Shown: positions 37,859-56,390, counted from the stretch's first letter. The stretch: DNA of 64,000 nt from an uncultured Parachlamydiaceae bacterium (GCA_963780445.1 CAWACC010000008.1:12523-76522), one strand, 5' to 3'. Notes: a model not told the origin generated them from the letters alone. Made by a program: numbers and translations.

Positions 37859-37930
37859 AATACTATTTTATTGAAATTCGCTTTTCTGATTTCATATGTA
37901 CAGAAATTCTCAACTTTGGAGGAGATGCGT

Positions 37931-38266
37931 ATGAAAGTGTTAAGCGGTTTTATTTTTTTTACATCCATGATCAGTTGCCTGGGATCTTTAGACGCACATA
38001 GGCATGAAGTCATTGTCATAGAGGAAGAACCTGCTGTGGATTGTGTCGTGGAGCAGGCACCACCTGAAGATATGGTGGAAGTATGCACTCCTTGCCCGGG
38101 AGCGAATTATTTCTGGATAAAAGGACGCTGGCATTGGAAGCATGGATGGCAATGGGCGCCGGGTCGTTGGGAAGTGCGCCCTTATGCTGCAGCTGTATGG
38201 AGCCATGGCCATTGGAAACGCAAACACCATGGATGGGTATGGATCGAAGGGCATTGGACACACTGA
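37931..38266 (+). CDS. Small secreted WxxGxW-repeat protein
   Basis: Start moved to the ATG at 37931 (GGAGG lies 8 nt upstream). Signal peptide MKVLSGFIFFTSMISCLGS. C-terminal repeats WIKGRWHWKHGWQWAPGRWEV and WSHGHWKRKHHGWVWIEGHW. Confidence 0.6.
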   Translation: MKVLSGFIFFTSMISCLGSLDAHRHEVIVIEEEPAVDCVVEQAPPEDMVEVCTPCPGANYFWIKGRWHWKHGWQWAPGRWEVRPYAAAVWSHGHWKRKHHGWVWIEGHWTH

Positions 38267-38269
38267 CCC

Positions 38270-39163
38270 ATGTTTTGCAAACGCCTGAAAAAAGAAATTG
38301 CTCCCGGCACTTTCATTTCCACTCCCGCGCGCCTCATGGCTATATTGCAATTGTGCCTGGCTTTTACGGTCCTGGCATGGCAGGCGGGTTATCCCTTTAT
38401 GGGAGAGCTGTTTGAAATAAAATCAAAATTGCTGGTCTATGACTATGTGATGGGGGTGAACAATGCAACCTATGCAGAACAGTTTTCGAATCTGCCCGAA
38501 AAGAAGAAAGAAGAAATTTTAAGGGAATACCAGACCTTAAAAGCTCATTTGGGCCGCCCTTTTGTGGATAAAGCGCTAGATTCTGTAGAAAGGGTATTTT
38601 TCAGCCTATCCCCCTTCAAATTATTGTGGATATTCTTCTCCATCATTATTCCCATTTTATTGCTTAAGAAGGTCGAAGGGGCCGCTTCAGTGATCTGGCT
38701 CCTTCCCTTGACCACCATGGTATTTATTGTCCATAACAGATGGTATGGAGAGGTGGTTCCTCTTTCCAAGGATACACAGCTTTTTCCTACTGAAGAAATC
38801 ATTGTTAATAACTATTTGAGGCATCCTTTGAGTTCCGATTTAAACCTGCAGGAGAAGCAGCTTCGCAATGGCTGGGAACTGTATTTGATTGAGGAATGGG
38901 CAAAAGAAACTCCTTCTTCGGATGCCTTCCAATTCACATTACAGAAAGAAAAAGGCGATTTTGCATTTAATCTTGCCCGGCTTTCCGGGCTGGAAATCAA
39001 ACCCTATAAATCATTCAATAATACACAGGAATCCTATCCTGTTTTGGCTCTCTATTTATTTTGGAACCTATCTTTTGCGTTAGTGGTGGGATCGGCTCTC
39101 CAGACTCCGCAGACAAGGCAAACAATACAAATTGTGTACCATTCTTCACCACTGAGCCAGTGA
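38270..39163 (+). CDS. Hypothetical integral membrane protein
   Basis: 297 aa with several TM helices. The start is 3 nt after the upstream stop, suggesting translational coupling. The last codons (SSPLSQ*) lie inside the family-A repeat arm. Confidence 0.5.
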   Translation: MFCKRLKKEIAPGTFISTPARLMAILQLCLAFTVLAWQAGYPFMGELFEIKSKLLVYDYVMGVNNATYAEQFSNLPEKKKEEILREYQTLKAHLGRPFVDKALDSVERVFFSLSPFKLLWIFFSIIIPILLLKKVEGAASVIWLLPLTTMVFIVHNRWYGEVVPLSKDTQLFPTEEIIVNNYLRHPLSSDLNLQEKQLRNGWELYLIEEWAKETPSSDAFQFTLQKEKGDFAFNLARLSGLEIKPYKSFNNTQESYPVLALYLFWNLSFALVVGSALQTPQTRQTIQIVYHSSPLSQ

Positions 39164-39270
39164 GATCACTGAGAAGGTTTGAGATAGGGAGGATAGATGC
39201 CTATTGATCAACTGTAACATGGCATTTGACGTACGTCCTTAAAAAGTTATGGCAAAGCAAAGCATGAAAA
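39143..39270. repeat. Half family-A element (39143-39200) plus a partial inverted family-D fragment (39228-39270)
   Basis: TTCTTCACCACTGAGCCAGTGAGATCACTGAGAAGGTTTGAGATAGGGAGGATAGATGCC has no right arm. GACGTACGTCCTTAAAAAGTTATGGCAAAGCAAAGCATGAAAA is the reverse complement of the family-D right arm. Confidence 0.8.
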
Positions 39271-39359
39271 TCTTCTTCATTGAATTAAATTTTATTTTAA
39301 TTATATTGACTTTAGATTTTTATTAAAAACATTAAATATTAAATTAAATAGAGATTTGT

Positions 39360-41222
39360 ATGAACAAAATTGATTCTATTAATCCTGCATTCGAGACTCC
39401 TCTTCACCTGGCAGTCAAAAGAGGTGATTTGCCCCAATGTAAATTATTGTTGGAGAAGGGCGCTAATATTAACGCCATCAATTGCCTTGGACAAAAAATA
39501 TTACCTATTGCATACGAATCTGAAAACAAAGAGCTCAGGTTCTTTTTTTTAAAAGAGATGATGAAAACCAAACCATTGTCCAATGATGGCAAGACTCCCA
39601 TTTTTGAATATGAGTGTTATCATCACAAACCTCTTTCCGACAAGGAATATGATGATTTTGAAGCGCCTCATAATGAGTTGACAAAATTGACAAAAGAACT
39701 GAAGCTTTTAGGCTTACGCTTTTCTTTACGAGGAAACGTCTTTGAAGGGAGCCCCTCTTTTTTAACCTATAATGCTCTCGCTTCATCTCTGGAAAACTAT
39801 TTAAAGCTCAATCCAGGGCAACCAGCGTCTATTCAATCCATTCCTGATATCATTAAAAATTCTGTAAATATTAAATCTGAGGAAATAATCACACAATTAA
39901 AGCAAAACAAAATAGCGACCCTTTCTTGCGGTTGGCCAGGACATGAAACAACAATAGTCTGTTCTAATAAATATTTAATAATCTGTAATAGGGGAAGTCA
40001 ATGTGGGGATAAACCTGGAATCACCCTATATTCGATTAATAATCCTGCAAAGCTTGATGCCATTATCAGAACCCTTATTGAAAATAGACAGTGGAAACTG
40101 GATCAGAAGGAACAAGCCAAAATTGCAATTGAGGGTACAAGAATTGCTTTTCTAAAAGAAAACATGAAAGAAAAATTTATTAATTTTTTTAATAAAGAAT
40201 TACAGGAAACATTGAAACTTAAAGAACTTCGATATTTCAAACAAAAACCTCAGACAAGTGGAAACTGTGCCTGGATTGGGCCAAAAATGGCTTTCCAGGG
40301 AATTATTATCCTCAATTCAATGCTGGAAAACCCCAATGCCGACCTCGATGACCTTATAAAGGAATCCAAAAAAATTTATACTGAATGGAAAGAATTTGAT
40401 TTGATTCATTCTTTGAAAATCCTCTCCGAAGCGGAAAAAGAACCTTTACTCAAATCTATAGTCGATTTTGAAGCAGTCTATGATGAGTTGTTTGCTTTAA
40501 ATCTTTCAAGAAAACCAGCTCTTGATATGCTATGCAATGCACGACCTCGTTTAAAAGAGTGGATTTCCAATCCCCCTTCTCACGTGATTTCCCATGCCTA
40601 TCAGCATAAGAGTTCAAAACTTTTAAAATCGTGCCTTTCCGCTGGCATTCCACCTGATTTGGAAAAGTTCAGCAAGTGCAACGATAACAAAATCTCCGAC
40701 ATTCATTACGATTACTTTCTAAAGAAAGATATAAAAGCCAATCAGGCGGATGCTTCCGGGATAACTCCTCTGCATGCCCTGTGCTGCAATGCTAACACAG
40801 CCAAGTTGCTGGAACTATTAAAATCCTGGAAAAAGGAAAGTGAAGAACTGAAAGAACCGCAATTATTTCAGAATGCCTTAAACGGTAAAAGTAGTTTAGG
40901 ATTGAACTTTCTTGATGTTCTAATTACAAAAGCAAAGGATCTGGCATCTTTAAAAGAATTGATCGATTGGTCCATTAAATCCGGAGCTGGTATTTTTGAT
41001 GCGACTATTCAGAATACCTTGGTAAAATTCAAAAAAACAGAAGACCTGGAAGTGATCAAAATGCTGTTGAAAAATGCAGGTTATTCTTTGGATGATTGCG
41101 CTTTCCTCTTTGATAATTTATTGAATGGTGAGCCTTACGAATTTACGGAAGCGGTTTTTATGGATTTGTCAGCAGATAGACAAAAATCCCTGCAAAATAA
41201 CCCAGAAGGGCAGGTACAGTAA
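39360..41222 (+). CDS. Ankyrin-repeat protein with a large non-repeat central domain (candidate effector)
   Basis: 620 aa with an N-terminal ANK repeat (TPLHLAVKRGDLPQCKLLLEKGANINAIN) and C-terminal ANK repeats (ITPLHALCCNANTAKLLELL...). The central region of about 350 aa carries the motifs GWPGHETTIVCSNKYLIICNRG and QTSGNCAWIG. Confidence 0.7.
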   Translation: MNKIDSINPAFETPLHLAVKRGDLPQCKLLLEKGANINAINCLGQKILPIAYESENKELRFFFLKEMMKTKPLSNDGKTPIFEYECYHHKPLSDKEYDDFEAPHNELTKLTKELKLLGLRFSLRGNVFEGSPSFLTYNALASSLENYLKLNPGQPASIQSIPDIIKNSVNIKSEEIITQLKQNKIATLSCGWPGHETTIVCSNKYLIICNRGSQCGDKPGITLYSINNPAKLDAIIRTLIENRQWKLDQKEQAKIAIEGTRIAFLKENMKEKFINFFNKELQETLKLKELRYFKQKPQTSGNCAWIGPKMAFQGIIILNSMLENPNADLDDLIKESKKIYTEWKEFDLIHSLKILSEAEKEPLLKSIVDFEAVYDELFALNLSRKPALDMLCNARPRLKEWISNPPSHVISHAYQHKSSKLLKSCLSAGIPPDLEKFSKCNDNKISDIHYDYFLKKDIKANQADASGITPLHALCCNANTAKLLELLKSWKKESEELKEPQLFQNALNGKSSLGLNFLDVLITKAKDLASLKELIDWSIKSGAGIFDATIQNTLVKFKKTEDLEVIKMLLKNAGYSLDDCAFLFDNLLNGEPYEFTEAVFMDLSADRQKSLQNNPEGQVQ

Positions 41223-42438
41223 TTTTTCTAAGGTACCAGAAAAAATCGACTTTTTGCACACCCATAAAGACAACCCCTGCGGCGGATCCGATCAATAGGA
41301 TACTGCCGCCCGTTCCGGCGCAAAAAGCAATCAATTCCCACAGCGCATGGTCTGGCGGGTATTGCTCCAAACTATACATTCCCATAGTGGCTGCCACGAG
41401 CGGGACGTTATCTATTACGGCAGAGACGATGCCGATAATGGTAGCGATGATGCTTATATTTCCAATGGACTCATCCAAGAATCTGGCTACGGCAGATAAA
41501 ATATTGGCGCTTTCCAAAGCATTGACGCACAATAAAATTCCGAGGAAGAAAAGGGCGCTGGACAGATCAATTCTAGAAAGGACAGCCGGTACTCTCAGAT
41601 CCTCACCGGAAGGATCCCTGTAATGAAGCAAGTCTGTAACTAGCCACATGATTCCAAGTCCGAATAACATCCCCATAAAAGGAGGAAGCCCTGTGAGAAT
41701 TTTGAAGATGGGAACGAAAACAAGGCAACCTATCCCAAGAGAGAAAATCAGGACACTAGTAGGGCTTACCTTTTCTTTTTGAGACGTCGTTATTTTTTCT
41801 TCATTATTGGATTTTATCATGAAGTAGAGCCAAGCAAAACTGACGACAAAAGAGACAAGGCTCGGTAAAAAAAGGGTTTTTATAATGTTCAAAGTCGTTA
41901 TTTGACCGCCGATCCATAGCATGGTTGTGGTTACATCTCCGATGGGAGTCCAGGCCCCTCCCGCATTCGCCGCGATGACAATCCCGCCGCCTATGAGGAG
42001 TTTGTCTTCTTTATCTTTAACAAGTTTGTTTAGCAAGGCCAACATCACTATAGTTGTAGTCAGATTGTCCAAAATGGCCGACAGGAAAAAGGCAATAATG
42101 CCTATAATCCATAATAATGTTCTTTCAGATTTTACCTGGATAAGATTGGAAACGATCTGGAAACCCTTGTGCACACTGATGATTTCCACTATGGTCAAAG
42201 CCCCGACCAGAAAAAACACCACCTGTGAAATATTGGCCAGATGATGGCCTAAAAAAACCAGATTTTCTTCTTTCGTAACCCCCGAGTGCGCGAACTGCAG
42301 CACCCAGCATATGACAGCCATCAAGAGGGCGATGGTGGTTTTATTGATTTTTGTATAGTGCTCAAAAGTAATTAAGGCATATCCTATGATAAATACGATG
42401 GAAATCCATAATCCTGTGAAATGAATGGAGTCTGACAT
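41158..42438 (-). CDS. NhaD/ArsB-superfamily Na+/H+ antiporter-like permease
   Basis: 426-aa polytopic membrane protein with an ArsB/NhaD-like duplicated architecture. Its 3' end overlaps the convergent ankyrin gene by 65 nt. Confidence 0.65.
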   Translation of the reverse strand: MSDSIHFTGLWISIVFIIGYALITFEHYTKINKTTIALLMAVICWVLQFAHSGVTKEENLVFLGHHLANISQVVFFLVGALTIVEIISVHKGFQIVSNLIQVKSERTLLWIIGIIAFFLSAILDNLTTTIVMLALLNKLVKDKEDKLLIGGGIVIAANAGGAWTPIGDVTTTMLWIGGQITTLNIIKTLFLPSLVSFVVSFAWLYFMIKSNNEEKITTSQKEKVSPTSVLIFSLGIGCLVFVPIFKILTGLPPFMGMLFGLGIMWLVTDLLHYRDPSGEDLRVPAVLSRIDLSSALFFLGILLCVNALESANILSAVARFLDESIGNISIIATIIGIVSAVIDNVPLVAATMGMYSLEQYPPDHALWELIAFCAGTGGSILLIGSAAGVVFMGVQKVDFFWYLRKITVPALLGYFAGIFVYLLTNP

Positions 42439-42514
42439 ATGAAATTATCCTTCTTTCTATGTATAAAATTCATTGATACAGTAAAATGATATTTTATGGA
42501 ATGATAAGTTGTCA

Positions 42515-43027
42515 ATGGAAACTAGGTTATTGGTCATTAAAACCCATCTTAAACCAGCTATAAAAAGGACAGCCTTAGTCAGAGGTACTTTGCTGGGTGG
42601 ACTGGGAGCTGTTATTATGGTTTTAGGCGGAATATATATTCCTCTCAATTCACTTGCAGTATGGGGCCTTCCGCTATTTCTGGCGGGTTTCGGTCTGATC
42701 ACCCTAGGCCTTCTCCCCTATCGAAAACTGTTGCGGCAAGAACAGCAGCCCTGTGAACTGCATCTTTATGAGGCCAGGCTGTTATTTATACACAAAAGGA
42801 TTCTTCTCACCTTGCCTCTGGCCAGTATAGAAAAAATGGAATTTCAAACCCTTCGAAACATGGAAGGTATTACTGTATATCTTAAAAATCCTGTACCAGA
42901 GAAAATAGTGCTTCACAGGCAGCGGCTTTCTGCAAAGCAATTGTATTATTTTAAAAACGCCCTATTTTTCCCTAATTTCAGCCATAGATCTTACGAAGAA
43001 TTAATGAAAGGGACCAAAGGGACATAA
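42515..43027 (+). CDS. Hypothetical membrane protein
   Basis: About 170 aa with two N-terminal TM helices. The C-terminal MKGTKGT* is encoded by a family-B repeat. Start placed at the first ATG; the track uses a TTG at 42509. Confidence 0.45.
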   Translation: METRLLVIKTHLKPAIKRTALVRGTLLGGLGAVIMVLGGIYIPLNSLAVWGLPLFLAGFGLITLGLLPYRKLLRQEQQPCELHLYEARLLFIHKRILLTLPLASIEKMEFQTLRNMEGITVYLKNPVPEKIVLHRQRLSAKQLYYFKNALFFPNFSHRSYEELMKGTKGT

Positions 43028-43051
43028 ATTTGTTGTCCCTTAGGTCCCTTT
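43007..43051. repeat. Family-B hairpin between convergent genes
   Basis: AAAGGGACCAAAGGGACATAAATTTGTTGTCCCTTAGGTCCCTTT fills the whole convergent spacer, in a bidirectional-terminator-like position. Confidence 0.85.
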
Positions 43052-43052
43052 C

Positions 43053-44021
43053 TTAGAGGCCTGACTGAAGGATATCATGCAGTTTTATGACCCCTGCAAC
43101 AGTATCGGCTTCATCGACGACTGCCAGAACGGTGATCGGATGTTTGGGATCAGCTTCCATTTTTTGCAGAGCCGTCCAGGCCAATTCTTCCGGGCGGATG
43201 GTCCTTGGAGTCAGGGTCATAATTTCTTTCATTTTTATTTCCAGGGCGTTCGAGCCTATTTTCTGCAGTGTCCTTCGCAAGTCCCCATCGGTAAAGATGC
43301 CTAGGAGTTTCCGATTGTGGTCCACAACCAGAACACAGCCGCAGCGTTTGTTTGAAAGTTCGACCAGCGTATCAACAAGAGTGTCCTCAGGCCCGCACAA
43401 AGGGATGGCAGAACCTGTAAGCATCAAGTCTATTACTTTCATCACCAGACGCCGTCCGATCCGTCCGGAAGGATGGTTCATGGCGTATTGGTCTTGGGAA
43501 AACTGCTTGATCTCCATCAAGGATATCGCCAATATATCTCCTATGATCATTTGCATTACGGTGGAAGTGGTTGGAGCCAGGTTATAGGGGCAAATTTCCC
43601 TGTCGGTCGGAATAGTTAACACAAAATTGCTGGCCTTGGCCAGCCGGCTTTCCGGATTGGATACAATAGATAGGATCTTAACCCCTTTATTGCGAAGAAA
43701 AGGCACCAGATGCAACAGTTCATCGCTTTCGCCGCTTTTGCTGATTAGAATAATCATATCGTTTTCTGTCACAATCCCGATGTCGCCATGCAAAGCGTTT
43801 ATCGGAGAGACGAATAGAGACCTAGTGCCTGTAGAAGTCAGTGTGACAGATATTTTCTCGGCGACCAGTCCGCTTTTTCCAATCCCTGACAAGAGAATGA
43901 TGCCCCGGCACTCCCGAAGGATACCGATCATTTTTTCCAACTGCACGAGATCCAATTTCTCAAAAAAATGATTTAAATAATTGCGCTCGTTGACCCATAG
44001 CCTTTCTATGACATCTTGCAT
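43053..44021 (-). CDS. kdsD: Arabinose-5-phosphate isomerase (KdsD/KpsF; SIS + tandem CBS domains)
   Basis: 322 aa with an SIS domain (LLSGIGKSGLVAEKISVTLTSTG) and two C-terminal CBS domains. This is the Kdo pathway enzyme expected in Chlamydiae. Confidence 0.85.
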   Translation of the reverse strand: MQDVIERLWVNERNYLNHFFEKLDLVQLEKMIGILRECRGIILLSGIGKSGLVAEKISVTLTSTGTRSLFVSPINALHGDIGIVTENDMIILISKSGESDELLHLVPFLRNKGVKILSIVSNPESRLAKASNFVLTIPTDREICPYNLAPTTSTVMQMIIGDILAISLMEIKQFSQDQYAMNHPSGRIGRRLVMKVIDLMLTGSAIPLCGPEDTLVDTLVELSNKRCGCVLVVDHNRKLLGIFTDGDLRRTLQKIGSNALEIKMKEIMTLTPRTIRPEELAWTALQKMEADPKHPITVLAVVDEADTVAGVIKLHDILQSGL

Positions 44022-44122
44022 ACAGAAAACCTTTCCAAATTTAAAAAAACAGTAATTTCTAAATGGATTTTAATTGATATCTTCATTACTCTCAAGCTTG
44101 TTTTTGTACTTTGAGGTAAAAC

Positions 44123-45577
44123 ATGAATATTAAAAAAATTCCTATAACCATTGCTGAAGGAGATGGCATTGGCCCAGAAATTATGAACGCAACTTTGTTG
44201 ATTCTGGAAACTGCCAAAGCCCCGCTTGATATTCATCGCGTGGAAATAGGGGAAAAAGTGTATAAGCGAGGTGAAAAGACCGGCATTGAACCTGCGACAT
44301 GGGATGCGATCCGCCGGACAAAGGCTTTTTTAAAAGCTCCCATAACCACTCCGCAAGGAGGAGGATTCAAAAGCCTGAATGTGACTATCCGGACTTCTCT
44401 TGGGCTTTATGCCAATGTGAGGCCCTGTATTTCTTACAGCCCCTTTGTGGAATCAAGGCATCCCAAAATGAATGTCGTCGTCGTAAGGGAAAACGAGGAG
44501 GACCTCTATACAGGCATAGAATACCGCCAGACACCGGATACCTACCACGCCTTGAAAATCATCACCAGGCCAGGATGTGAAAAGATCGTCCGTTATGCGT
44601 TTGAATATGCCAGGGCGAACAAAAGAAAAAAGGTGACCTGTTTTACAAAAGACAACATCTTAAAACTATCCGACGGGCTTTTTCACAAAATCTTTGACGA
44701 AATCGCAAAAGAGTACCCTGATCTGGAAAATGAACATTGGATTGTGGATATCGGCGCTGCCAAGCTGGCGGATACTCCCGAAGTCTTTGATGTGATCGTC
44801 ATGCCCAATTTATATGGAGATATCCTCTCCGATGTGGCCGCCCAGATTGCCGGCTCTGTGGGACTGGCCGGATCGGCCAACATTGGAGAACACGGGGCCA
44901 TGTTTGAAGCCATTCATGGATCAGCTCCCAGGCGGGCAGGGCAGAACCTGGCAAATCCCTCGGGACTCCTGCTGGCGGCAGTACAAATGCTGGTACATTT
45001 GGGACTTGCTGAAACAGGGACTCTAATCCACAATGCCTGGTTGAAAACCTTGGAAGATGGCATTCATACCTATGATATTTTCAAACCCAATACAAGCAAG
45101 GAAAAGGTAGGCACAAAAGAATTTGCGAAAGCTGTAGCTGCCCGATTGGGCCAAATCCCGCATACGCTCAAGGCGGTTCATTATGCCGCACCTAACATGA
45201 GCAAACACACACCTTCGCAGCCATCTTCCCAAGCTCCAAAGATAACAAAGGAACTTGTTGGCATCGACGTTTTTATTGAATCTCATGGAGATGTAGAATC
45301 CCTGCAAAAAAAATTGTCCTCCCTGAAAAACAAGGATTTCAAACTCACGATGATCAGCAACCGCGGAGTGCGCGTATGGCCGGAAAAGATGCCTGAGACC
45401 TCCTGCAGCGATACCTGGAGGTGTCGTTTCATGAAGAAAGAAAACAAACTCCATTTAAAGCAGTTAGCGGAGCTTATTCAAAATCTGGCAGATGCCCAAG
45501 TGGATTTTGTCAAAACAGAACATCTGTACACTTTTGATGGAGTGCCGGGGTATACGGTAGCCCAAGATGAACAATAA
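44123..45577 (+). CDS. icd: Isocitrate dehydrogenase (isocitrate/isopropylmalate DH family, long form with a C-terminal extension of about 130 aa)
   Basis: 484 aa with the family signature NLYGDILSDVAAQIAGSVGLAGSANIG. The stop codon TAA is the first base triplet of the family-B repeat (TAAGGGAC). Confidence 0.8.
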   Translation: MNIKKIPITIAEGDGIGPEIMNATLLILETAKAPLDIHRVEIGEKVYKRGEKTGIEPATWDAIRRTKAFLKAPITTPQGGGFKSLNVTIRTSLGLYANVRPCISYSPFVESRHPKMNVVVVRENEEDLYTGIEYRQTPDTYHALKIITRPGCEKIVRYAFEYARANKRKKVTCFTKDNILKLSDGLFHKIFDEIAKEYPDLENEHWIVDIGAAKLADTPEVFDVIVMPNLYGDILSDVAAQIAGSVGLAGSANIGEHGAMFEAIHGSAPRRAGQNLANPSGLLLAAVQMLVHLGLAETGTLIHNAWLKTLEDGIHTYDIFKPNTSKEKVGTKEFAKAVAARLGQIPHTLKAVHYAAPNMSKHTPSQPSSQAPKITKELVGIDVFIESHGDVESLQKKLSSLKNKDFKLTMISNRGVRVWPEKMPETSCSDTWRCRFMKKENKLHLKQLAELIQNLADAQVDFVKTEHLYTFDGVPGYTVAQDEQ

Positions 45578-45786
45578 GGGACTAAAGGGACCAAAGGAAC
45601 ATAAAGGTTTACCACTGAGCCAGTGAGATCACTGAGAATGTATGAGATAATTGAGAGGAGTCTGAAACATATGTTAAAAGACGGACTTAATAGTATAGGA
45701 GTTGAATCTAACTCGCCCTATCTCATACCTTCTCTGTGATCTCACTGGCTCAGTGGTAAACCATGTCTTTTATGTCCCGTCTTTCA
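45575..45786. repeat. Composite element: family-A copy 4 (45608-45760) nested between family-B arms
   Basis: TAAGGGACTAAAGGGACCAAAGGAACATAAAGG | TTTACCACTGAGCCAGTGAGATCACTGAGAATGTATGAGATAATTGAGAGGAGTCTGAAACATATGT ... CTCACTGGCTCAGTGGTAAACC | ATGTCTTTTATGTCCCGTCTTTC. Confidence 0.9.
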
Positions 45787-46449
45787 TTGCTTTTCAACCT
45801 CGAATTTTTTGAATAATTCCCTGATGGCATTCCCTCGATCATTATCAAATTCATCCGATTTTATTATTCTTGCTATCGTGATTGTATCATAATCGATTTT
45901 TGCATTCATATCTGCTCCACTTTTCAGCAAAAATTCAATGATAGAAAGAGGCATAGACCTATTATATATATAATTAAGACATGCCGCAAGAAGAGGTGTC
46001 ACTCTACAATAAGTACGAGTATGTCCGCGTTTACAGTTCAAACTTTGCGGAATTAGCCTCACGATATCTTTGATATCCTTTTCGGTTTCTTGAGTATATG
46101 CCTTAATGGAATGATCGCCAAATGGGAGATTCCATCCGGTAAAAACAGCATCGAGAAGATGAGGATTTACATCACCGTCTTGTTCTCCATATTGCTCATA
46201 ATATTCGTTATATACAGAATATTTATTTACAAGCTCGTGGATTCTTTTTAGATCTTTCATTTTTTCAGAAAATACTACTGATGTTTCTTTGTTAATTTTG
46301 GCAATGTTGTTTATTGTGTTGGCATAATTTTTTATTTTGCAACTTGTAATCATTGTTGGTTGATCAAGAATGGCAATTTTTAAAATAATTGAATTGACCT
46401 CTGAAGGCAATTCTGGAAATAAGGGAAATGATAAATTTAAGTTGGACAT
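45784..46449 (-). CDS. F-box-like / ankyrin-repeat protein (paralog family 2, copy 1)
   Basis: 221 aa with N-terminus MSNLNLSFPLFPELPSEVNSIILK (tentative F-box-like LPxE...IL motif) and a C-terminal ANK-like segment TPLLAACLNY...IIEFLLKSGADMNAKI. One of three tandem paralogs. Confidence 0.6.
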   Translation of the reverse strand: MSNLNLSFPLFPELPSEVNSIILKIAILDQPTMITSCKIKNYANTINNIAKINKETSVVFSEKMKDLKRIHELVNKYSVYNEYYEQYGEQDGDVNPHLLDAVFTGWNLPFGDHSIKAYTQETEKDIKDIVRLIPQSLNCKRGHTRTYCRVTPLLAACLNYIYNRSMPLSIIEFLLKSGADMNAKIDYDTITIARIIKSDEFDNDRGNAIRELFKKFEVEKQ

Positions 46450-46551
46450 GATGTCTCCTATTATATTAGATTTTTGAACACGATTTTATTGAGGCATATG
46501 CCCGAGGTATTCCTCGAAAATTTTTTGAGCTAATTCTAACCGGGCCTTCTC

Positions 46552-47229
46552 CTAAATTTTTTCAAACTCGTATTTTTTGAATAATTCCCTGATGGCATGC
46601 CCTCGATCTGTATCAAATTCATCCGATTTTATCATTCTTGCTATCGAGATTGCACTACCATATTTACCAGAATCGATTTTTGCATTCATATCTGCTCCAC
46701 TTTTCAGCAAAAATTCAATGATAGAAAGAGGCCTAGGCGCATGATATTTATAATTAAGACATGCCGCAAAAAGGGGCGTCACTTTTTGACACATACGAGT
46801 ATATCCATGTTTACAGTTCAAACTCTGAGGAGTTAACCTCACGATATCTTTAATATCATTTTCGGTTTCTTGAGTATATTCCTGAATCGAATGATCGCCA
46901 AATGGGAGATTCCATCCGGTTAAAACAGCATCGAGAAGATGCGGATTTACATCACCGTCTTCTTCTCCATATTGCTCATAATCTCTGTTATATATAGTAT
47001 ATTTATTTACAAGTTCGCGAATTCTTTTTAAATCTTTCATTTTTTCAGAAAGCACTTCGAAGGTTGTTTTGTTAATCGAAGCAATGTTGTTTATTTTGTT
47101 GGCATAATCTTTTATTTTGCCACTTGTAATTATTGTTGGTTGATCAAGAATGACATTTTTTAAAATAATTGAATTGACCTCTGAAGGCAATTCTGGAAAT
47201 AAGGGAAATGATAAATTTAAGTTGGACAT
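46552..47229 (-). CDS. F-box-like / ankyrin-repeat protein (paralog family 2, copy 2)
   Basis: 225 aa, nearly identical at the N-terminus to copies 1 and 3. It ends at a TAG where copy 3 has TGG (Trp). Confidence 0.6.
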   Translation of the reverse strand: MSNLNLSFPLFPELPSEVNSIILKNVILDQPTIITSGKIKDYANKINNIASINKTTFEVLSEKMKDLKRIRELVNKYTIYNRDYEQYGEEDGDVNPHLLDAVLTGWNLPFGDHSIQEYTQETENDIKDIVRLTPQSLNCKHGYTRMCQKVTPLFAACLNYKYHAPRPLSIIEFLLKSGADMNAKIDSGKYGSAISIARMIKSDEFDTDRGHAIRELFKKYEFEKI

Positions 47230-47253
47230 GATGTCTCCTATTATATTAGATTT

Positions 47254-47315
47254 ACACGATGTGCGAGTTTGTCTTGCAGCCTTTCCAGGCTGTCAAGAAA
47301 AACTCGCACGCCGCG
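47254..47315. mobile_element. 62-bp palindromic (MITE-like) insertion flanked by an 8-bp direct duplication TTAGATTT
   Basis: The paralogous spacer at 46466-46480 reads TATTAGATTTTTGAACACG without interruption. Here the spacer reads TATTAGATTT[ACACGATGTGCGAGTTTGTCTTGCAGCCTTTCCAGGCTGTCAAGAAAAACTCGCACGCCGCG]TTAGATTTTTGAACACG. The insert folds as a long hairpin (GTGCGAGTTT.../...AAACTCGCAC). Confidence 0.6.
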
Positions 47316-47335
47316 TTAGATTTTTGAACACGATT

Positions 47336-48106
47336 TTATTGAGGCATAAGCCTGAGGTATTCCTCGAAAATTTTTTGAGCTAATTCTGGAGGTATTTCCG
47401 AAAGGATGGATTGCGGATCTTTCTTTTGTGCCAGAAATAGGAACCGGGCCTTTTCCCAAATTTTTTCAAACTTATATTTTTGGAGCAATTCCAAAATAGC
47501 ATGTTGTCGAGTGGCATCCATTTCTGTATAATTCTCTTCTACTAAGTAAGATGCAGATTCCTTCCCGGCGCAGGTTGCATAAAGATTCGCTCCACTTTTC
47601 AGCAAAAATTCAACGATGGAAACAGGTATTTTTTCGTTGATACATGCAACAATCAAAGGAGGAGTTTTAATGGTGAGACGCGTTTGTCCCTCATTACAAT
47701 TCAAACTTTGAGGAGTAAGCCTGACTATATCTTTGATATCCTTTTCGGTTTCTTGAGTATAAACCCCAATGGAATGTTTGCCACCAGGTAAATCCCATCC
47801 GGTAAAAACAGCATCGAGAAGATGGTGATTTATGAAACGGTCTCCAAATAGCTCATAACATTCGTTATATACAGTATATTTATTTATAAGTTCGTGGATT
47901 CTTTTTAGATCTTTCATTTTTTCAGAAAAGACTTCTGAGGTTTCTCTGTTAATCTTGGCAATGTTGTTAATTTTAATGGCACAATCTTTTATATTTTTAC
48001 TTGTAAATATTGTCGGTTGATCGAAAATGACATTTTTTAAAATAATTGAATTGACCTCTGAAGGCAAATCTGGAAATAAAGGAATTGATAAATTTAAGTT
48101 TGACAT
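47336..48106 (-). CDS. F-box-like / ankyrin-repeat protein (paralog family 2, copy 3, with a C-terminal extension)
   Basis: Start reassigned to MSNLNLSIPLFPDLPSEV to match its paralogs (the track ORF starts 22 codons upstream). It has an extra C-terminal tail ...KIWEKARFLFLAQKKDPQSILSEIPPELAQKIFEEYLRLMPQ containing a second F-box-like LxxIPPELxxKIF motif. Confidence 0.6.
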   Translation of the reverse strand: MSNLNLSIPLFPDLPSEVNSIILKNVIFDQPTIFTSKNIKDCAIKINNIAKINRETSEVFSEKMKDLKRIHELINKYTVYNECYELFGDRFINHHLLDAVFTGWDLPGGKHSIGVYTQETEKDIKDIVRLTPQSLNCNEGQTRLTIKTPPLIVACINEKIPVSIVEFLLKSGANLYATCAGKESASYLVEENYTEMDATRQHAILELLQKYKFEKIWEKARFLFLAQKKDPQSILSEIPPELAQKIFEEYLRLMPQ

Positions 48107-48250
48107 AACGTCTCCTGTTTCTATATTTTTGAATACGATATTAAATTTATAATAAATAAAAATAATCGTCAAGTATAAAAAAACATATATAAAAAAACGA
48201 TATTATGGTATGATTAGTTTTGCCTTTAATATTAAAGTTAAGGAGACAAC

Positions 48251-49711
48251 ATGAATCAAAATGTTTTTATAAGTAAATTTAATTCACTTAATCAGGCAGT
48301 TGATAGTGGTGAAATAATAAAAATTGCTAAAAATGGCGAATTAAAACACAAATGTGTGTCCGGGAATTTTTTCGAAAGACTCCGTGGACGCGTGGTCCGT
48401 GTTATTAAAGAAATATCGAGTTTTCTGACTGGAGAAGATTTACTGGCCAATGTCCGTATTAAAAACATAGCGCAGAAAACTTTTGATCTATGTAATAAAT
48501 ACTCTGAAGAACATAACGTGTCCTTAAGCCAACAAGAAGCTGATTCGGCTATTAAATTTTTGGAAAAGCTAAAAAATAAAGCCAAATCTGATATCTCAAA
48601 ACTGAATGTGGATATTTGTGTATTAAAGATACAGGCTCTTATGCTACAGCAAATTAACAATGAAGCGAACAAAACCCCTCCACCCGTGAGGCCGCAATTG
48701 CCGGATAACTTGCCTTCATTTGGCAGCACTACAAAAACAATTATATCTGATACTGCTGCAGCAAATACACCCACAATTACCACGACGACGACAACTCCAG
48801 CAACGCCAATAATTCCTACCCCCATCCCAACCCCACCCCCAACAGGAGCTATGCTACCCCCACCGCCTCCCCCTATGGGAATGCTATCTTCAAAAACCAC
48901 ATTGACACCTGAACAACAATGGAAACATGACCAAGAGACCAAGTTAAAAAGGAATCAACTGGAAAGGGCCAATCCAAACGCGTTTTACTGCCAGATACCC
49001 GTGGATGCCTTAACTAAAAGCCTGTTAACTGAACACTTGAATACACTCGGTTTCCTCAAAATAAATTCAAATCTCAACAAAGAAGAAAAAAAATATCTGG
49101 AAGAAAAGGAAAAAGAACTCAAATCCCGAATGGAATCCCGAAAAGAACCGATGAGCCAAAACAGCTCTGATTTTAAATACCAACTTTCTAGACTGACGAA
49201 TGAAGAACTTTCCATATTGATAGCCATATATTTCTCTACCCTAGAGAAAAAGGAAGAGAATTCCATCTATAACGAATTTAAATATCTGGTGGAAGGGAGT
49301 TTGAATAATTCGCCTGCATTGCTGTCAGGGCCGATAGGCCAACTTTTTATGGCAAATAAAACGCAATGGATTGAATTGTTAACTAGCAGTGGCGGCTGTT
49401 TAAGCGCTTTTCTCAAACTGTTAGAGGCAAGAATGAAAGGAACCATCCAGGAGCCGCAATATAAAGCCCAACCCTACGACCCCGCGAAGGTACGTCGCCA
49501 GGAAAAAGAGAAAACTCTACCTAACAATACTGCAACAACTGAAGGAAAACCAGAAATAAAGGATGAAATCATCCATCATAAGCCTTTGCATCATGTGGAT
49601 AAACAAGCGCAAGATCCAGTAGAAAAAACCCCTGAAGAAAATGAAGTCGAACGGATAAGAAGACTAATTAAAGAGCAAAACAAACGCGCCAACGGAAAAC
49701 CAAACGGCTAA
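48251..49711 (+). CDS. Proline/threonine-rich hypothetical protein (candidate effector)
   Basis: 486 aa. The central tract is TPPPVRPQLPDNLP...TPTITTTTTTPATPIIPTPIPTPPPTGAMLPPPPPPMGML, and the flanks are charged and helical. No enzymatic motif recognised. Confidence 0.5.
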   Translation: MNQNVFISKFNSLNQAVDSGEIIKIAKNGELKHKCVSGNFFERLRGRVVRVIKEISSFLTGEDLLANVRIKNIAQKTFDLCNKYSEEHNVSLSQQEADSAIKFLEKLKNKAKSDISKLNVDICVLKIQALMLQQINNEANKTPPPVRPQLPDNLPSFGSTTKTIISDTAAANTPTITTTTTTPATPIIPTPIPTPPPTGAMLPPPPPPMGMLSSKTTLTPEQQWKHDQETKLKRNQLERANPNAFYCQIPVDALTKSLLTEHLNTLGFLKINSNLNKEEKKYLEEKEKELKSRMESRKEPMSQNSSDFKYQLSRLTNEELSILIAIYFSTLEKKEENSIYNEFKYLVEGSLNNSPALLSGPIGQLFMANKTQWIELLTSSGGCLSAFLKLLEARMKGTIQEPQYKAQPYDPAKVRRQEKEKTLPNNTATTEGKPEIKDEIIHHKPLHHVDKQAQDPVEKTPEENEVERIRRLIKEQNKRANGKPNG

Positions 49712-49715
49712 AAGT

Positions 49716-49903
49716 AAAAGGGACCAAAGGGACATAGTTTACCACTGAGCCACTGAGATCACTGAGAAGGTATGAGATAATTGAGAGGAGTCTGAAACAT
49801 ATGTCAAAAAGACAGACTAAAACAGAGCCTAACCCTCTCTATCTCATACCTTCTCAGTGATCTCAGTGGCTCAGTGGTAAATTATATCCCTCTGGTCCCT
49901 TAT
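49716..49903. repeat. Composite element: family-A copy 5 (49738-49882) nested between family-B arms
   Basis: AAAAGGGACCAAAGGGACATAG | TTTACCACTGAGCCACTGAGATCACTGAGAAGGTATGAGATAATTGAGAGGAGTCTGAAACATATGT ... CAGTGATCTCAGTGGCTCAGTGGTAAATT | ATATCCCTCTGGTCCCTTAT. Same orientation and core as copy 4. Confidence 0.9.
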
Positions 49904-49946
49904 TTTTTTCTTTTCAATATCATCTTCTCTTTTATATAATGTGACC

Positions 49947-51713
49947 ATGTATAAAACAATACTTGATACCTTAAGTGACAAATTCAGACAAGCTGTCCTT
50001 GCGGCTTATCCCGAACTTGCCGATAGCGGGCAAGAGGTTTCCATCGAAGTCACGCAAAGTAGTGCAGCCAAACCAGGCCACTACCAATTCAATTCAGCCA
50101 TGAAGCTGACGCGGCAGCTTAAAGTGAAGCCGCATGAAATAGCTGAGAAAGTTAAGGCAAAACTCCCCATTTTACATAAGGAGGGGCTGCCCTTTATCAG
50201 CCAAGTTGAAATTGCCGGGCCGGGCTTCATCAATATCACCCTAGATGATGTCTTTATCACTTATGCTGTCAACCAGCTGTTGCTTCCCCATCTGGGTATG
50301 GAAAAGCCCGCCCATAGGGAGCGGATCATCATTGATTTCTCATCGCCAAACATAGCCAAAGAGATGCACGTAGGCCATTTGAGATCGACCATTATCGGGG
50401 ATTGCCTGGCAAGGCTCTTTGAGTTTTTGGGCCATGACGTGCTTCGGCTCAATCATCTGGGAGACTGGGGCACGTCCTTTGGGATGTTGATTGCATATAT
50501 GAAAACACAGGCTCCTCAAGTTCTGACCGGAGAACAACCGACCGACCTGACTCATCTGGTACATTGGTATCGGGAAGCCAAAAAGCAGTTTGATAGCGAC
50601 CCTGACTTTAAAAAGAAATCCCAAGAAGAGGTCGTTTTATTACAGGGCGGACAGGCGAAAGCCCTTAAGGCTTGGCAGATCATCTGCCTGATTTCCGAGA
50701 AGGCCTATAAGGAAGTTTATGACCTGCTTGACGTAAAACTAGTGGACCGGGGCGAATCCTATTATAATCCCATGCTGGCAGATGTTGTCAAAGAACTCGA
50801 ATCCAAAGGCCTTGTCACCATTTCTGAAGGGGCCAAATGCATTTTTCTGGAAGGGTTTAAAAACCGGGAGGGAGATCCCCTGCCATTGATGATTCAAAAA
50901 TCGGACGGAGGGTATAACTACGATACCACCGATATGGCAACCATCAAACACCGCATTGAAATAGAAAAAGGGGAACGATTGATCTATGTCACAGACATGG
51001 GCCAAAGCACCCATTTTCAAATGATCTTCAAAGCAGCGGAAAAAGCCGGCTACCTCGATCCAGCCAAAGTGCGCACCGATCATGTTCCCTTTGGATTGGT
51101 ACTAGGCCCTGATGGAAAAAAATTCCGAACCCGTGCTGGGGAAAGTGAAAAACTGATCGACCTTCTAAAAACTGCGATAGACCAGGCCAGGAATATACTA
51201 ATGACAAGGAATCCCGAGATGCCCGTCGAAGAGAGGGAATCCTTGGCGAAAGCTTTGGGCATCGGAGCAATCAAGTATGCTGACTTGAGCTGCAACCGTA
51301 CTGGAGATTATACGTTCAGTTATGAAAGGATGTTGAGATTTGAGGGAAATACCGCCGCATTTCTCATGTATGCGTATGTACGGATCAACGGGATCAAACG
51401 CAAAATCAATGCTGATATGGAAGAAGTCAGGAAAAAACACAGGATTTATTTGGAGCACCCCTCCGAATTTGCTTTGGCTTTACATCTGGCCCAATTTGGA
51501 GAAGCATTAAATCAGATGGCAAACGACCTCTTGCCTAATCGCCTGACCGATTACTTATATACCTTGGCAGAGAAATTCAATGCCTTCTTCAGGGATTGCC
51601 GTGTCGAAGGGACGGTCCAGCAATATTCCCGATTGCTGTTATGTGAAGCCGCTGCCGGGGTATTGAAGCAGGGGTTGGAAATACTGGGTTTAAAAACTGT
51701 AGACAGGATGTAA
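49947..51713 (+). CDS. argS: Arginine--tRNA ligase
   Basis: About 588 aa with class I HIGH motif HVGHLRS, ArgRS N-terminal domain features and a C-terminal DALR-type anticodon-binding region. Start placed at the ATG at 49947; the track uses a GTG at 49941. Confidence 0.9.
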   Translation: MYKTILDTLSDKFRQAVLAAYPELADSGQEVSIEVTQSSAAKPGHYQFNSAMKLTRQLKVKPHEIAEKVKAKLPILHKEGLPFISQVEIAGPGFINITLDDVFITYAVNQLLLPHLGMEKPAHRERIIIDFSSPNIAKEMHVGHLRSTIIGDCLARLFEFLGHDVLRLNHLGDWGTSFGMLIAYMKTQAPQVLTGEQPTDLTHLVHWYREAKKQFDSDPDFKKKSQEEVVLLQGGQAKALKAWQIICLISEKAYKEVYDLLDVKLVDRGESYYNPMLADVVKELESKGLVTISEGAKCIFLEGFKNREGDPLPLMIQKSDGGYNYDTTDMATIKHRIEIEKGERLIYVTDMGQSTHFQMIFKAAEKAGYLDPAKVRTDHVPFGLVLGPDGKKFRTRAGESEKLIDLLKTAIDQARNILMTRNPEMPVEERESLAKALGIGAIKYADLSCNRTGDYTFSYERMLRFEGNTAAFLMYAYVRINGIKRKINADMEEVRKKHRIYLEHPSEFALALHLAQFGEALNQMANDLLPNRLTDYLYTLAEKFNAFFRDCRVEGTVQQYSRLLLCEAAAGVLKQGLEILGLKTVDRM

Positions 51714-51720
51714 TAATCTT

Positions 51721-52995
51721 ATGTGCAAACCGGCAAAGGGAATAAATCCCAATATCTTTTTTGGCGTGGCCCTCGTGCTGGGGCTGGCAGCAGGGTTTTA
51801 TGGCTCGCCTGCTGTGTTTTCTACAGCAGAAGTGGTTTCACAAATTTTTATCAACCTGTTGAAGCTAGTCAGCCTCCCCATCATCTTCCTTTCGATTGTT
51901 TCAACGGCCTTGGGAATGGAAAGCACTCAGGAGATCAAAACCATCGGCTTCAGAGTGGTCAAATATACCTTATTGACGACTATTCTCGCGGCTTCTGTAG
52001 CCCTGCTCATTTATGTTTTTGTCCATCCTGTCCAGGTGATCCTCTCTTCAGATCCGACAAATGATGCCGGAAGCCAGGCGGGATATCTTACCTTTCTTCT
52101 CCGAGCTATCCCTTCGAATATCCTGCAGCCTTTTGTAGAAAACAACGTGATAGGGGTCCTTTTGCTAGCCTTGATGCTTAGCCTGGCAGCGTTCGGCTTG
52201 CCCGTGCAAAACCGGGTGGTCCTCCACCAATTTTTTTCCAGCCTGTTCCAAGTAGTCATGAAAATCACCCAGTGGCTTGTGCGGTGGATGCCTATAGCGA
52301 TATGCGCTTTCATCACACTGTTTGTCAGGGACTTAAAAGGGGGATTGGAATTTAAAAGTCTGGCATTGTATCTTTGCTGCGTTCTATCTGCCAATCTCAT
52401 TCAGGCGCTGATCATTTTACCTTTGATCCTTAAATGGAAAGGGGTCTCCCCCCTCCATATGATGCGGTCGATGATGCCCGCCCTGTCTGTCGCTTTCTTT
52501 ACCAAATCTTCGAGTGCCGCCTTGCCAATGGCTATGAAATGCGCAGAAGAAAAAGCAGGCATATCCCGAAAGGTCTCCAGCTTTACTTTGCCTTTATGCA
52601 CTACGATCAATATGAACGCCTGTGCGGCCTTCATTCTCATTACGGTATTGTTTGTTTCGATGAGCCATGGGATGACCTACTCCCCTATTGAAATGACCGC
52701 ATGGATACTCATAGCCACTTTAGCTGCCATCGGAAATGCAGGAGTTCCCATGGGTTGCTATTTTTTGGCCAGCGCTTTTTTGGCGGCCATGAATGTTCCC
52801 TTGACCCTTATGGGAGTAATCCTCCCCTTTTATGCCTTGATCGACATGTTAGAAAGCGCTATTAATGTATGGTCCGATTCCTGTGTCGCAGCCGTTGTAA
52901 ATAAAGAGATGGAAGAAAAGCAACCAGTTCCGCCGGAAGAACCTCTGCTCCCTTCTCCCAATTCACACAATATGATACAATCGGGTGCAGAGTGA
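51721..52995 (+). CDS. Dicarboxylate/amino acid:cation symporter (DAACS/GltP family)
   Basis: 424-aa polytopic protein with the family motif FTKSSSAALPMAM (SSSAxLP). Confidence 0.8.
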   Translation: MCKPAKGINPNIFFGVALVLGLAAGFYGSPAVFSTAEVVSQIFINLLKLVSLPIIFLSIVSTALGMESTQEIKTIGFRVVKYTLLTTILAASVALLIYVFVHPVQVILSSDPTNDAGSQAGYLTFLLRAIPSNILQPFVENNVIGVLLLALMLSLAAFGLPVQNRVVLHQFFSSLFQVVMKITQWLVRWMPIAICAFITLFVRDLKGGLEFKSLALYLCCVLSANLIQALIILPLILKWKGVSPLHMMRSMMPALSVAFFTKSSSAALPMAMKCAEEKAGISRKVSSFTLPLCTTINMNACAAFILITVLFVSMSHGMTYSPIEMTAWILIATLAAIGNAGVPMGCYFLASAFLAAMNVPLTLMGVILPFYALIDMLESAINVWSDSCVAAVVNKEMEEKQPVPPEEPLLPSPNSHNMIQSGAE

Positions 52996-53020
52996 AAACC
53001 AGGGAAACAGGTCAAACAAC

Positions 53021-54062
53021 ATGAATTCAGGAAAATTCCATACTCCCTTAAAACGGGTCCCCTATAAGTTCTTTCCTCATGACACGCAAGCAGTGATCAA
53101 AAAACTGGGAAAAGAGGTTCTTATCGAAAACCTCAGGCAAATGCTGCTTCTCCGCAATTTTGAAACGCGTGCCGAATCGGCGTATCTGCAGGGAAAAATA
53201 GGAGGCTTTTTTCATTCCTATATTGGACAAGAAGCCATCCAGACAGCAGCCATCCAAGCCATTGGCTTGAACCACTGGTGGATTACATCCTATCGCTGCC
53301 ATGCTTTGGCCCTGCTACTAGGGGCCACCCCCAATGAAATTATGGCCGAACTGTATGGCCGCGCCACAGGCAATGCCAAAGGACGCGGCGGCTCGATGCA
53401 TCTTTATACCGATCGCCTGCTGGGAGGATTCGGAATTGTAGGCGGGCAAATCCCCATTGCTACAGGAGCCGCTTTTACCGTCAAATACAAAGAAAATAAA
53501 GAAGAAATCGCCATCTGTTTTATGGGTGACGGGGCTGTTGCGCAAGGGGCTTTTCATGAATCCTTGAATCTAGCCTCTTTGTGGGATTTGCCCTGCATTT
53601 ATGTGATTGAAAACAATCAATGGGGCATGGGAACGGCAGTCAATCGGGCCGTGAGCGTAGACTACCTGGCAGAAGATAAAGCCCCGGGGTATAACATGAA
53701 GGGTTATACATTCGATGGAATGGATTTCTTCAACTGCTATGCCGGATTTGACCACGTTTTCCATGAAGTCTTGAAGACCAGCCGGCCTGTTTTGATAGAA
53801 GTCGTTACCGAGCGCTTTAAAGGCCATTCGATATCAGATCCTGGGCTCTACCGCTCTAAAGATGAACTGAAAGAAAGCATGCAGCGAGACCCTATTGCAT
53901 CTCATGCAAAAAGCTTTGATAGAAGCTCATATCATTGATGAAGAAACAATAAAAATAATGGACAAAGAAATGAAGGAACAGGTCATGGCCTCCATGAAAT
54001 ATGCCGATGAAAGCCCTTGGCCGGATCCTCTTTCTCTGGAAGAAGATGTTTATGCTCCATAG
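53021..54062 (+). pseudogene. pdhA: Pyruvate dehydrogenase E1 alpha subunit, interrupted by one single-base frame disruption near 53900
   Basis: The TPP-binding block GDGAVAQGAFHESLNLASLWDLPCIYVIENNQWGMGT is present. The first frame ends ...RDPIASHAKSFDRSSYH* at 53938. The expected C-terminus LMQKALIEAHIIDEETIKIMDKEMKEQVMASMKYADESPWPDPLSLEEDVYAP* continues in the +1 frame to 54062. Confidence 0.75.
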
Positions 54063-54070
54063 GTACCCTA

Positions 54071-55056
54071 ATGGCAAATACCCAAATCATTGAAATGCGC
54101 GAAGCGCTTCGGCAAGCTTTGGATGAAGAGATGGCGCGCGACCCCGCTGTCTTCATCATGGGCGAAGAGGTGGGGGAATATAATGGCGCTTATAAAATAA
54201 CCAAAGGCCTGCTCGATAAATGGGGTCCCAAGAGGATCCTGGATACTCCCATTTCCGAATCGGGGTTCGCCGGGCTGGCCATAGGAGCCGCCATGACAGG
54301 TTTAAGGCCTGTCGTAGAATTCATGAGTTTTAATTTCTCTTTTGTAGCTGCAGACCAGCTGATTTCCAATGCCATTAAAATGTATTACATGTCAGGCAAC
54401 CGCTTTTCCGTGCCTATCGTTTTTCGGGGCCCGAATGGTGCCGCCGCTCAGGTATCCAGCCAGCACTCCCATTGCGTCGAAGCTATTTACGGCAATTTAC
54501 CCGGATTCATCGTCATTGCGCCCAGCAATCCCTATGATGCCAAAGGCCTTTTAAAATCAGCCATTCGGAATAACAATCCGGTTTTATTTTTGGAATCGGA
54601 ACTGTCCTATGGCGACAAAATGGAAATTCCTGTCGAGGAATACCTGGTGCCTATTGGCAAAGCAAAAATTGTAGAAAAAGGACAGCATGTAACCATTGTT
54701 TCCCACAGCCGGATGGTGCTGTTATGCCATACTGCCGTGAAAGAACTAGCGAAGAAAGGGATAAAAGCGGAACTGATTGATCTGCGGACATTGCGGCCTT
54801 TAGACATAGCCACAGTCATTGAATCAGTCCGAAAGGACTCATCGCTGCGTTCTAGTCGAAGAAGGGCATATCTACGCAGGAATCGCTTCAGAAGTGGGAT
54901 TTCAAATCCAGGAATATGCATTTGACTATCTGGATGCCCCCATCGAAAGGGTATGCCAGCGCGACACACCGATGCCATATTCCAAAGTGCTTGAAAGCGA
55001 AACGCTTCCAACCGTAGCATCGCATTCTGGCCGCTGTATATAAAACTATGAGATAA
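54071..55056 (+). pseudogene. pdhB: Pyruvate dehydrogenase E1 beta subunit, interrupted by two single-base frame disruptions (about 54836 and about 55023)
   Basis: Start MANTQIIEMREALRQA. Frame 1 degenerates after ...VIESVRK. The conserved THRCVLVEEGHIYAGIASEVGFQIQEYAFDYLDAPIERVCQRDTPMPYSKVLE... lies in the +1 frame (track ORF 54819..55043). A typical end ILAAVYKTMR* lies in the next +1 frame. Confidence 0.75.
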
Positions 55057-55072
55057 TCTATAAAGGAGACAT

Positions 55073-56383: not shown

Positions 56384-56390
56384 ACACTGC

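Follow-up and report, generated by a model that had tools for sequence, protein, structure and literature searches.

Results

The icd–argS interval and its genes

The window analysed here is a stretch of 64,000 nucleotides from an uncultured Parachlamydiaceae bacterium (GCA_963780445.1, CAWACC010000008.1:12523-76522), corresponding to C8:12523-76522 of the assembly G000 (3.0 Mb in 17 contigs, 42% GC, completeness score 68%). Positions given without a contig refer to this window. We examined the interval between the genes icd and argS, which carries a composite hairpin repeat at each end, designated e1 and e2. The left conserved flank, icd (44123-45577, plus strand), encodes isocitrate dehydrogenase, as indicated by the Pfam domain Iso_dh (E 3e-92) and the bacterial IDH C-terminal domain; an exact-match look-up of its protein gave no match. 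The right conserved flank, argS (49941-51713, plus strand), encodes arginyl-tRNA synthetase (tRNA-synt_1d, E 8e-123, together with DALR_1 and Arg_tRNA_synt_N). Element e1 (45575-45785, plus strand) is located between icd and the convergent gene of paralog 1, and its first nonamer overlaps the stop codon TAA of icd. Element e2 (49710-49912) has the same orientation; after its right arm comes ATTTTTTTCTTTT. Exactly four open reading frames (ORFs) lie between the two elements, three tandem paralogs on the minus strand and one proline-rich ORF on the plus strand, so that the ORF positions and the Pfam-confirmed flanks agree with the bracketing stated in a preliminary description of this DNA. That description took the arrangement for a repeat-bounded insertion or excision cassette. 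Our results make it probable that the interval is instead a variable accessory slot and that e1 and e2 are independent, long-resident copies of a hairpin repeat found throughout the genome, not the ends of a cassette.

The three paralogs are encoded at 45784-46449 (paralog 1, 221 aa, GC 32.9%), 46552-47229 (paralog 2, 225 aa, GC 33.5%) and 47336-48172 (paralog 3, listed as an ORF of 278 aa; it is extended at the C-terminus, and its start homologous to those of the other two is the ATG at 48106). Paralogs 1 and 2 are 79% identical and paralog 3 is 62-64% identical to both; the threshold for tandem paralogs was a minimum of 30% identity over a minimum of 60% of the length, and the full-length identities here are 62-80%. 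The family has five copies in the genome, two of which are dispersed outside the locus (C11:138690 and C9:335100) and are about 37% identical to those in the interval, and it is present in only 3 of the 30 genomes of relatives. The genes had been described as F-box-like/ankyrin paralogs. Their tandem paralogy holds, no F-box was found by Pfam in any of the three, and the label 'ankyrin-like' is weakly supported: the Ank profile scores were 14.5-19.8 bits, below the cut-off of 21.1, and the AlphaFold model of paralog 2, which is mostly helical (pLDDT 74.5), had no significant match in the PDB, the best being ankyrin domains with E values of 0.1-0.5. We regard the paralogs as putative host-interaction genes, fast-evolving and low in GC. 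The proline-rich protein (486 aa, 48251-49711, plus strand, GC 39.6%) is essentially an orphan, with no Pfam family, no significant homologue and no meaningful sequence match in the PDB; its gene is single-copy in the genome.

Gene order in relatives

The order nhaD-hyp-kpsF-icd is conserved across the relatives from Parachlamydiaceae and Simkaniaceae. The argS gene was not found near icd in 21 distant relatives, nor in nine genomes of the family including the only one of the same genus (G001). A search with the ArgS protein yielded closer relatives, and in all seven of the nearest (76-81% identical in ArgS) argS on the plus strand stands between a patatin-like phospholipase gene on the minus strand and moxR. 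The closest one (L134; GCA_052916005.1, 81% identical in ArgS) has the order kpsF-icd-patatin-argS-moxR and carries none of the repeats of families A and B which make up e1 and e2. The four genes are therefore absent at the same site in this relative, a feature by which genomic islands are recognised, and the patatin gene stands between icd and argS in their place. Patatin had no match anywhere in the assembly, and no remnant of its gene was seen in the interval. The synteny is also broken downstream of argS, which is followed by gltP-pdhAB in this genome; moxR lies at C11:796 kb.

These comparisons support the view that the icd–argS interval is a lineage-specific variable slot for accessory genes, and to that extent the preliminary description is confirmed. 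The content of the slot was exchanged in this lineage, since the relatives carry patatin, the paralog family is rare and the proline-rich gene is an orphan.

Other GC-rich hairpins are present in both gaps around patatin in the closest relative (L134:3850-4048 and 5254-5421), and one of them ends before the conserved argS promoter region, at the same point as e2 does here. In one relative, a gene for a 302-aa double-domain Y1 transposase (L136:301-1209) was found just upstream of patatin-argS, where the slot varies.

Structure and similarity of e1 and e2

Both elements are built in layers, with outer arms of the nonamer AAGGGACNN (family B), inner arms with the terminus and repeat CACTGAG (family A) and a central asymmetric core, which is the source of the polarity of the element. 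The nesting of family-A copies in family-B arms, as had been proposed, was found around both e1 and e2. The arms are 44-70 nt long and 91-95% complementary, and the predicted RNA folds are very stable, with −106.7 kcal/mol (z −13.3) for e1 and −128.2 kcal/mol (z −20) for e2. In the window, the 31-mer GAGATAATTGAGAGGAGTCTGAAACATATGT has exactly two occurrences, at 45644-45674 in e1 and at 49774-49804 in e2, both times on the plus strand (chance expectation 0). The elements are 84% identical over 178 nt, and a stretch of 73 nt which includes the exact 31-mer is 96% identical.

The claim that these are the two most similar family-A copies proved to be right for the window, where they share orientation and the exact 31-mer, but not for the genome, in which the core bearing the 31-mer is present at 26 loci. 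The best match of e1 in the genome is at C10:31069 and those of e2 are at C8:139717 and C8:138761; each of the two ranks well down the match list of the other, and they are not sister copies. Beyond the edges of the elements they are no longer similar: neither a common flank nor a target-site duplication was seen outside e1 and e2, and the outer flanks (…GATGAACAATAA and ATTTTTTTCTTTTC…), read by eye, have no common direct repeat. The flanks of the elements continue the palindrome (the family-B arms) instead of a direct repetition.

A T-run follows e2 and precedes a promoter-like site upstream of argS (49911-49940, plus strand; TTTTCA, 18 nt, TATAAT), the region of which is conserved in sequence with the closest relative as compared by eye. 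A simple terminator scan, limited to stems of 20 pairs and loops of 8 nt, called neither e1 nor e2.

The hairpin repeat family in the genome

The A arm is present in 482 copies, grouped in 135 loci that cover 40 kb of the genome; five or six of the loci are in the window. Neighbouring loci are at most 4.2 kb apart in 30 of 119 pairs (25%; 17% for a Poisson spread). As many as 128 of the 135 loci are intergenic (regions as called from ORFs), and 52 of these 128 lie between convergent genes, compared with 18% of all intergenic regions, which is a 2.3-fold enrichment; divergent regions are depleted. Element e1 likewise occupies a convergent gap. The composite of B and A is the usual form of the element, since 38% of all A arms have a GGGAC unit of the nonamers no more than 40 nt outside them, compared with 2% by chance. 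As for what such elements enclose, other direct pairs of the same subtype surround rnpA and rpsN, kbl and a cystathionine-lyase-like gene, or a single secreted-type ORF. These intervals are not accessory blocks.

At many loci a single arm has been multiplied in tandem, with periods of 59-79 nt (59, 68, 73 and 79), and some loci reach 4.9 kb. At C1:112950-114560, outside the window, the left A arm is expanded about 17 times with an exact period of 73 nt and is followed by the loop and about three right arms. A CRISPR reading of such regularly spaced arrays was rejected; they are tandem repeats because the units, the 'spacers' included, are identical.

Among the genomes G000-G030, the A arm is found 482 times in G000, 0 times in the only genome of the same genus, 28 times in G005, 21 times in G024, which belongs to another family, and 5 times in G018. 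This patchy distribution suggests a recent expansion, a transfer between chlamydiae, or both. As far as our searches went, the family is undescribed, and scans of JGI metagenomes with the 3′ end of icd and with the core 31-mer gave no match.

Two further copies deserve mention. In G005, which is of a different genus and has its 28 arms in 3.3 Mb, a family-A element that lacks the core (L104:8828-8995, contig G005:C1) occupies the gap between argS and a Glu/Leu-dehydrogenase gene. The presence of a copy upstream of argS in two genera may reflect a site preference, an insertion long ago, or chance, the probability of which is about 0.5% for one given junction. Within the window, the left half of an A element (39145-39186) is located just upstream of a gene encoding a 620-aa ankyrin-repeat protein (39360-41222). 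Nothing on the syntenic contig of G001 matches this gene, and its neighbours adjoin each other there; it is the second accessory gene that has a repeat on one side.

Search for a mobility function

No transposase, recombinase or integrase was detected among the four enclosed ORFs by ORF calls and Pfam, and the elements themselves, of about 200 nt, are non-coding. The block was not found a second time in the genome and matched nothing in the plasmid or phage collections. The only tRNA genes in the window are those of the rRNA operon at 32.3 kb, none of which adjoins the block.

No transposase or autonomous element with ends matching the A/B repeat was found in the genome either. The genome has 11 hits of the Y1 transposase (PF01797), the most among the 31 genomes. 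An association of the repeat with REP-associated tyrosine transposases (RAYTs) was rejected since none of the 11 lies within 5 kb of an A-element locus. Examples of the hits are C8:199548, C8:215499 and C9:212747; identical IS200-like copies account for five of them, of which three stand at contig ends, and several other Y1 genes are single-copy and may serve other repeat families. One A/B element outside the window (C17:26780-29035) has its two halves separated by some 2 kb of nested repeats together with an insertion sequence (IS) of 1679 bp, which contains a gene for a 455-aa transposase (C17:27380-28747). The IS has three copies (C17, C1 and C3) that are 99.8-100% identical. It was rejected as the autonomous partner and is a secondary insertion, because its two other copies have no A arms nearby.

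The block in a related strain

A related strain is represented by two ENA contigs of one metagenome (ERZ25039465) that are 95-97% identical to the window. One of them, L132 (contig_74796), covers positions 36279-48998 and the other, L150 (contig_102573), covers 49000-57343. The arrangement of the block is the same as here apart from the number of paralogs. Element e1 is at the same site in L132, about 97% identical over its A portion, and e2 is kept in place in L150, inside a stretch of 96.8% identity. L132 encodes a protein identical to paralog 1, which adjoins icd. Where three paralogs are present here, the strain has two, of which the second combines paralogs 2 and 3 as a hybrid (L132 aligned with 46811-48094), the expected product of unequal crossing-over in the conserved 5′ halves; the direct repeats that recombined are about 88% identical and 0.9 kb apart.

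A palindrome of 62 bp (47254-47315, within the stretch 47246-47323; recognised by its inverted repeat and by alignment of the spacers) separates paralogs 2 and 3. It is flanked by an 8-bp target-site duplication (TTAGATTT), and the paralogous spacer at 46466-46473 represents the empty site. This palindrome belongs to a different family of small mobile repeats, with similar sequences at C17:28850 and at several loci of C11 and C1. The block is therefore of an age that has allowed its paralogs to diverge, and it changes through local recombination and small insertions; the flanking elements stay fixed.

The sequence upstream of argS differs in L150, where a high-GC part (L150:1-9116, dnaX-type) is joined at position 49000, where the proline-rich low-complexity stretch has just ended. 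It contains dnaX and other genes and has no match in our genome. We rejected it as a real rearrangement; the junction is most likely a chimera of the metagenome assembly, because the high-GC part joins exactly where L132 ends. Another contig, L133 of the Logan collection, breaks inside the right arm of e2. L132 also contains about 462 additional bp at 40233-40235, within the ankyrin gene 39360-41222, which is split there into two ORFs.

Base composition

The enclosed genes had been judged to be AT-richer by eye, and the compositional check bore this out: the interval has 35.8% GC, which is among the lowest 3.3% of genome windows of the same size, and its flanks have 44.3% and 47.0%. The GC content of the interval deviates from that of the genome, as is expected of genomic islands. 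The 49 element-bracketed intervals of 0.8-8 kb show no such tendency as a group, the mean GC difference between inside and outside being +0.008 and negative in 20 of the 49. Genes with less than 36% GC make up 6.9% of those adjoining elements and 12.7% of the others. The low GC is a property of the gene family and not of the locus, because paralogs 1-3 (33-34%) share it with the dispersed paralogs (32.5-33%); the proline-rich gene with its 39.6% is unremarkable. Low GC is not evidence of recent import here.

Discussion

Our analysis favours a slot in which the contents differ between lineages: in this genome it holds the three weakly ankyrin-like paralogs with the proline-rich orphan, and in the nearest relatives the patatin-like phospholipase gene beside argS. 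The block would evolve in place by tandem duplication, by unequal crossing-over between the paralogs and by insertions such as that of the 62-bp palindrome. Elements e1 and e2 would have settled independently in intergenic DNA, preferentially at the 3′ ends of genes, and would not have delivered the block. Repeats at both ends of a block are expected often from so dense a family, and because the two are ordinary copies of a repeat present at about 135 places, it is improbable that they mark the ends of a mobile cassette. Being direct repeats of 84% identity, they could occasionally recombine with each other and delete the block.

The preliminary description implied that the block and its two repeats move as a whole, either like a composite transposon or by site-specific excision. 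The common orientation of the elements and their 73-nt stretch of 96% identity fit this, as do the low GC of the block and its absence from most relatives, yet we consider such a cassette highly improbable. The repeats are ordinary family members with only 84% identity over 178 nt and closer kin elsewhere, no duplication or shared flank was seen around them, and neither the four ORFs nor the neighbourhood of A elements (no Y1 hit within 5 kb, the IS at C17 being secondary) offers an enzyme. Moreover, the block has no second copy and no plasmid or phage counterpart, and it is stable in the strain of about 96% identity. The closest relative, which lacks the repeats, carries patatin and not the four genes, and the composition of the interval differs from its flanks, both in accordance with the cassette, but these two findings do not separate an accessory slot from a block mobilised by repeats. 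A different role of the repeats is conceivable, in which recombination between dispersed copies brought the block in or removed patatin, e1 and e2 being the joints. Several findings weigh against independent settlement, and the first two of them also for such a replacement. Homology with the closest relative ends, as judged by eye, at the outer edges of e1 and e2, so the elements are inside the swapped segment, which would also fit a role in the swap. Core-bearing loci form five pairs within 5 kb where label shuffling predicts 1.3 (P ~0.008), and four of these pairs are in direct orientation (0.7 expected); this excess of neighbouring copies hints at local spread or local homogenisation. Our interval also has the strongest GC contrast of the 49 that are bracketed by elements. 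The absence of patatin is not certain, since the gene may merely be unassembled in a 68% complete assembly. Finally, the comparisons pass from a strain of about 96% DNA identity directly to relatives with at most 81% identity in ArgS, and the repeats may have arrived before or after the gene swap. The hybrid of paralogs 2 and 3 in L132 adds that this lineage does recombine direct repeats of about 88% identity at 0.9 kb, and the synteny break downstream of argS, with moxR elsewhere, is also in line with a replacement. We nevertheless regard it as unlikely. Neither element is a sister of the other, each being closer to copies at other loci, and no A element is present at C1:16-21 kb, the location in this genome of the block that follows icd in G001. 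The coincident edges carry little weight, because at about 80% protein identity the intergenic DNA is unalignable anyway, and element-bracketed intervals in general are not accessory-like. The broader notion that the repeats serve as joints for an integrase-free exchange of accessory blocks between direct copies of the same subtype, and so define slots in this chlamydial lineage, is kept alive by the excess of such neighbours and by the coincidence of swap edges with element ends, and we hold it to be quite doubtful.

The hairpins may also have been selected as insulators which terminate transcripts and protect icd and argS from the AT-rich block, a role unrelated to mobility. We rate this as possible, well short of probable. 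The predicted stability of both folds and the T-run between e2 and the promoter-like site of argS speak for it, and so does the 2.3-fold enrichment of the family at convergent gene ends. In the related strain, e1 and e2 are better conserved than the neighbouring synonymous sites (97% in e1), and a family-A element stands directly upstream of argS in G005 as well. On the other hand, the terminator scan called neither element, purifying selection against insertions into promoters would produce the enrichment at 3′ ends just as well, and relatives manage at the same junctions without A/B elements. Judging from the folds, e1 and e2 probably stop or stabilise transcripts at the convergence of icd and paralog 1 and in the gap from the proline-rich gene to the argS promoter. 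An accessory slot with independently settled copies of the repeat remains, in our opinion, the probable explanation.

If repeats of this type did mobilise blocks, obligate intracellular bacteria could exchange host-interaction genes without the enzymes of classical mobile elements. The evidence favours the ordinary case, a slot filled by a tandemly duplicating family of putative effectors in a genome crowded with selfish or terminator-like hairpins. In this genome, look-alike repeats a few kb apart are insufficient on their own as a sign of a cassette. The repeat family, with its patchy occurrence among genera, is a more interesting object than the block.

Composite transposons and genomic islands resemble the locus in that a low-GC accessory block stands between conserved genes and has similar direct repeats at its ends. 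They differ from it in that no transposase or integrase, no adjoining tRNA gene and no apparent target duplication are present here, and the repeats, which are non-coding and 84% identical, each have closer copies elsewhere. The enclosed genes are better compared with the eukaryote-like families (F-box, BTB and ankyrin) which form tandem, strain-variable arrays in Parachlamydiaceae (Domman et al. 2014, PMC4209131). Like these presumed host-interaction genes of amoeba symbionts, the paralogs described here are lineage-specific, arranged in tandem and variable in copy number between close strains, whereas their family is small (five copies), lacks a recognisable F-box and has a sub-threshold ankyrin signal. 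Extensive rearrangement between genera and collinearity within species have been described for Parachlamydiaceae (PMC5010888).

Among repeats, the miniature inverted-repeat transposable elements (MITEs), such as the Correia elements of Neisseria and the Rickettsia palindromic elements, are similar to the A/B element in being 100-200 nt long with extended terminal inverted repeats, in numbering hundreds per genome and in occurring patchily among related genomes. As a difference, no target-site duplication was recognised for the A/B element and no autonomous element with matching ends was found, whereas the 62-bp palindrome in the block has its 8-bp duplication. The REP, BIME and REPIN sequences of Enterobacteria and Pseudomonas are likewise high-copy intergenic hairpin repeats, enriched at 3′ ends, often in clusters or composite arrays, and specific to lineages. 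In contrast to REPINs with their RAYTs, no single-copy Y1 transposase gene flanked by cognate repeats was found, and no Y1 gene is within 5 kb of an A copy. The A/B units are also longer (about 150-200 nt, with stems of 45-70 bp), contain internal sub-repeats of CACTGAG and AAGGGACNN and, unlike REP, BIME and REPIN sequences, are multiplied in tandem with periods of 59-79 nt.

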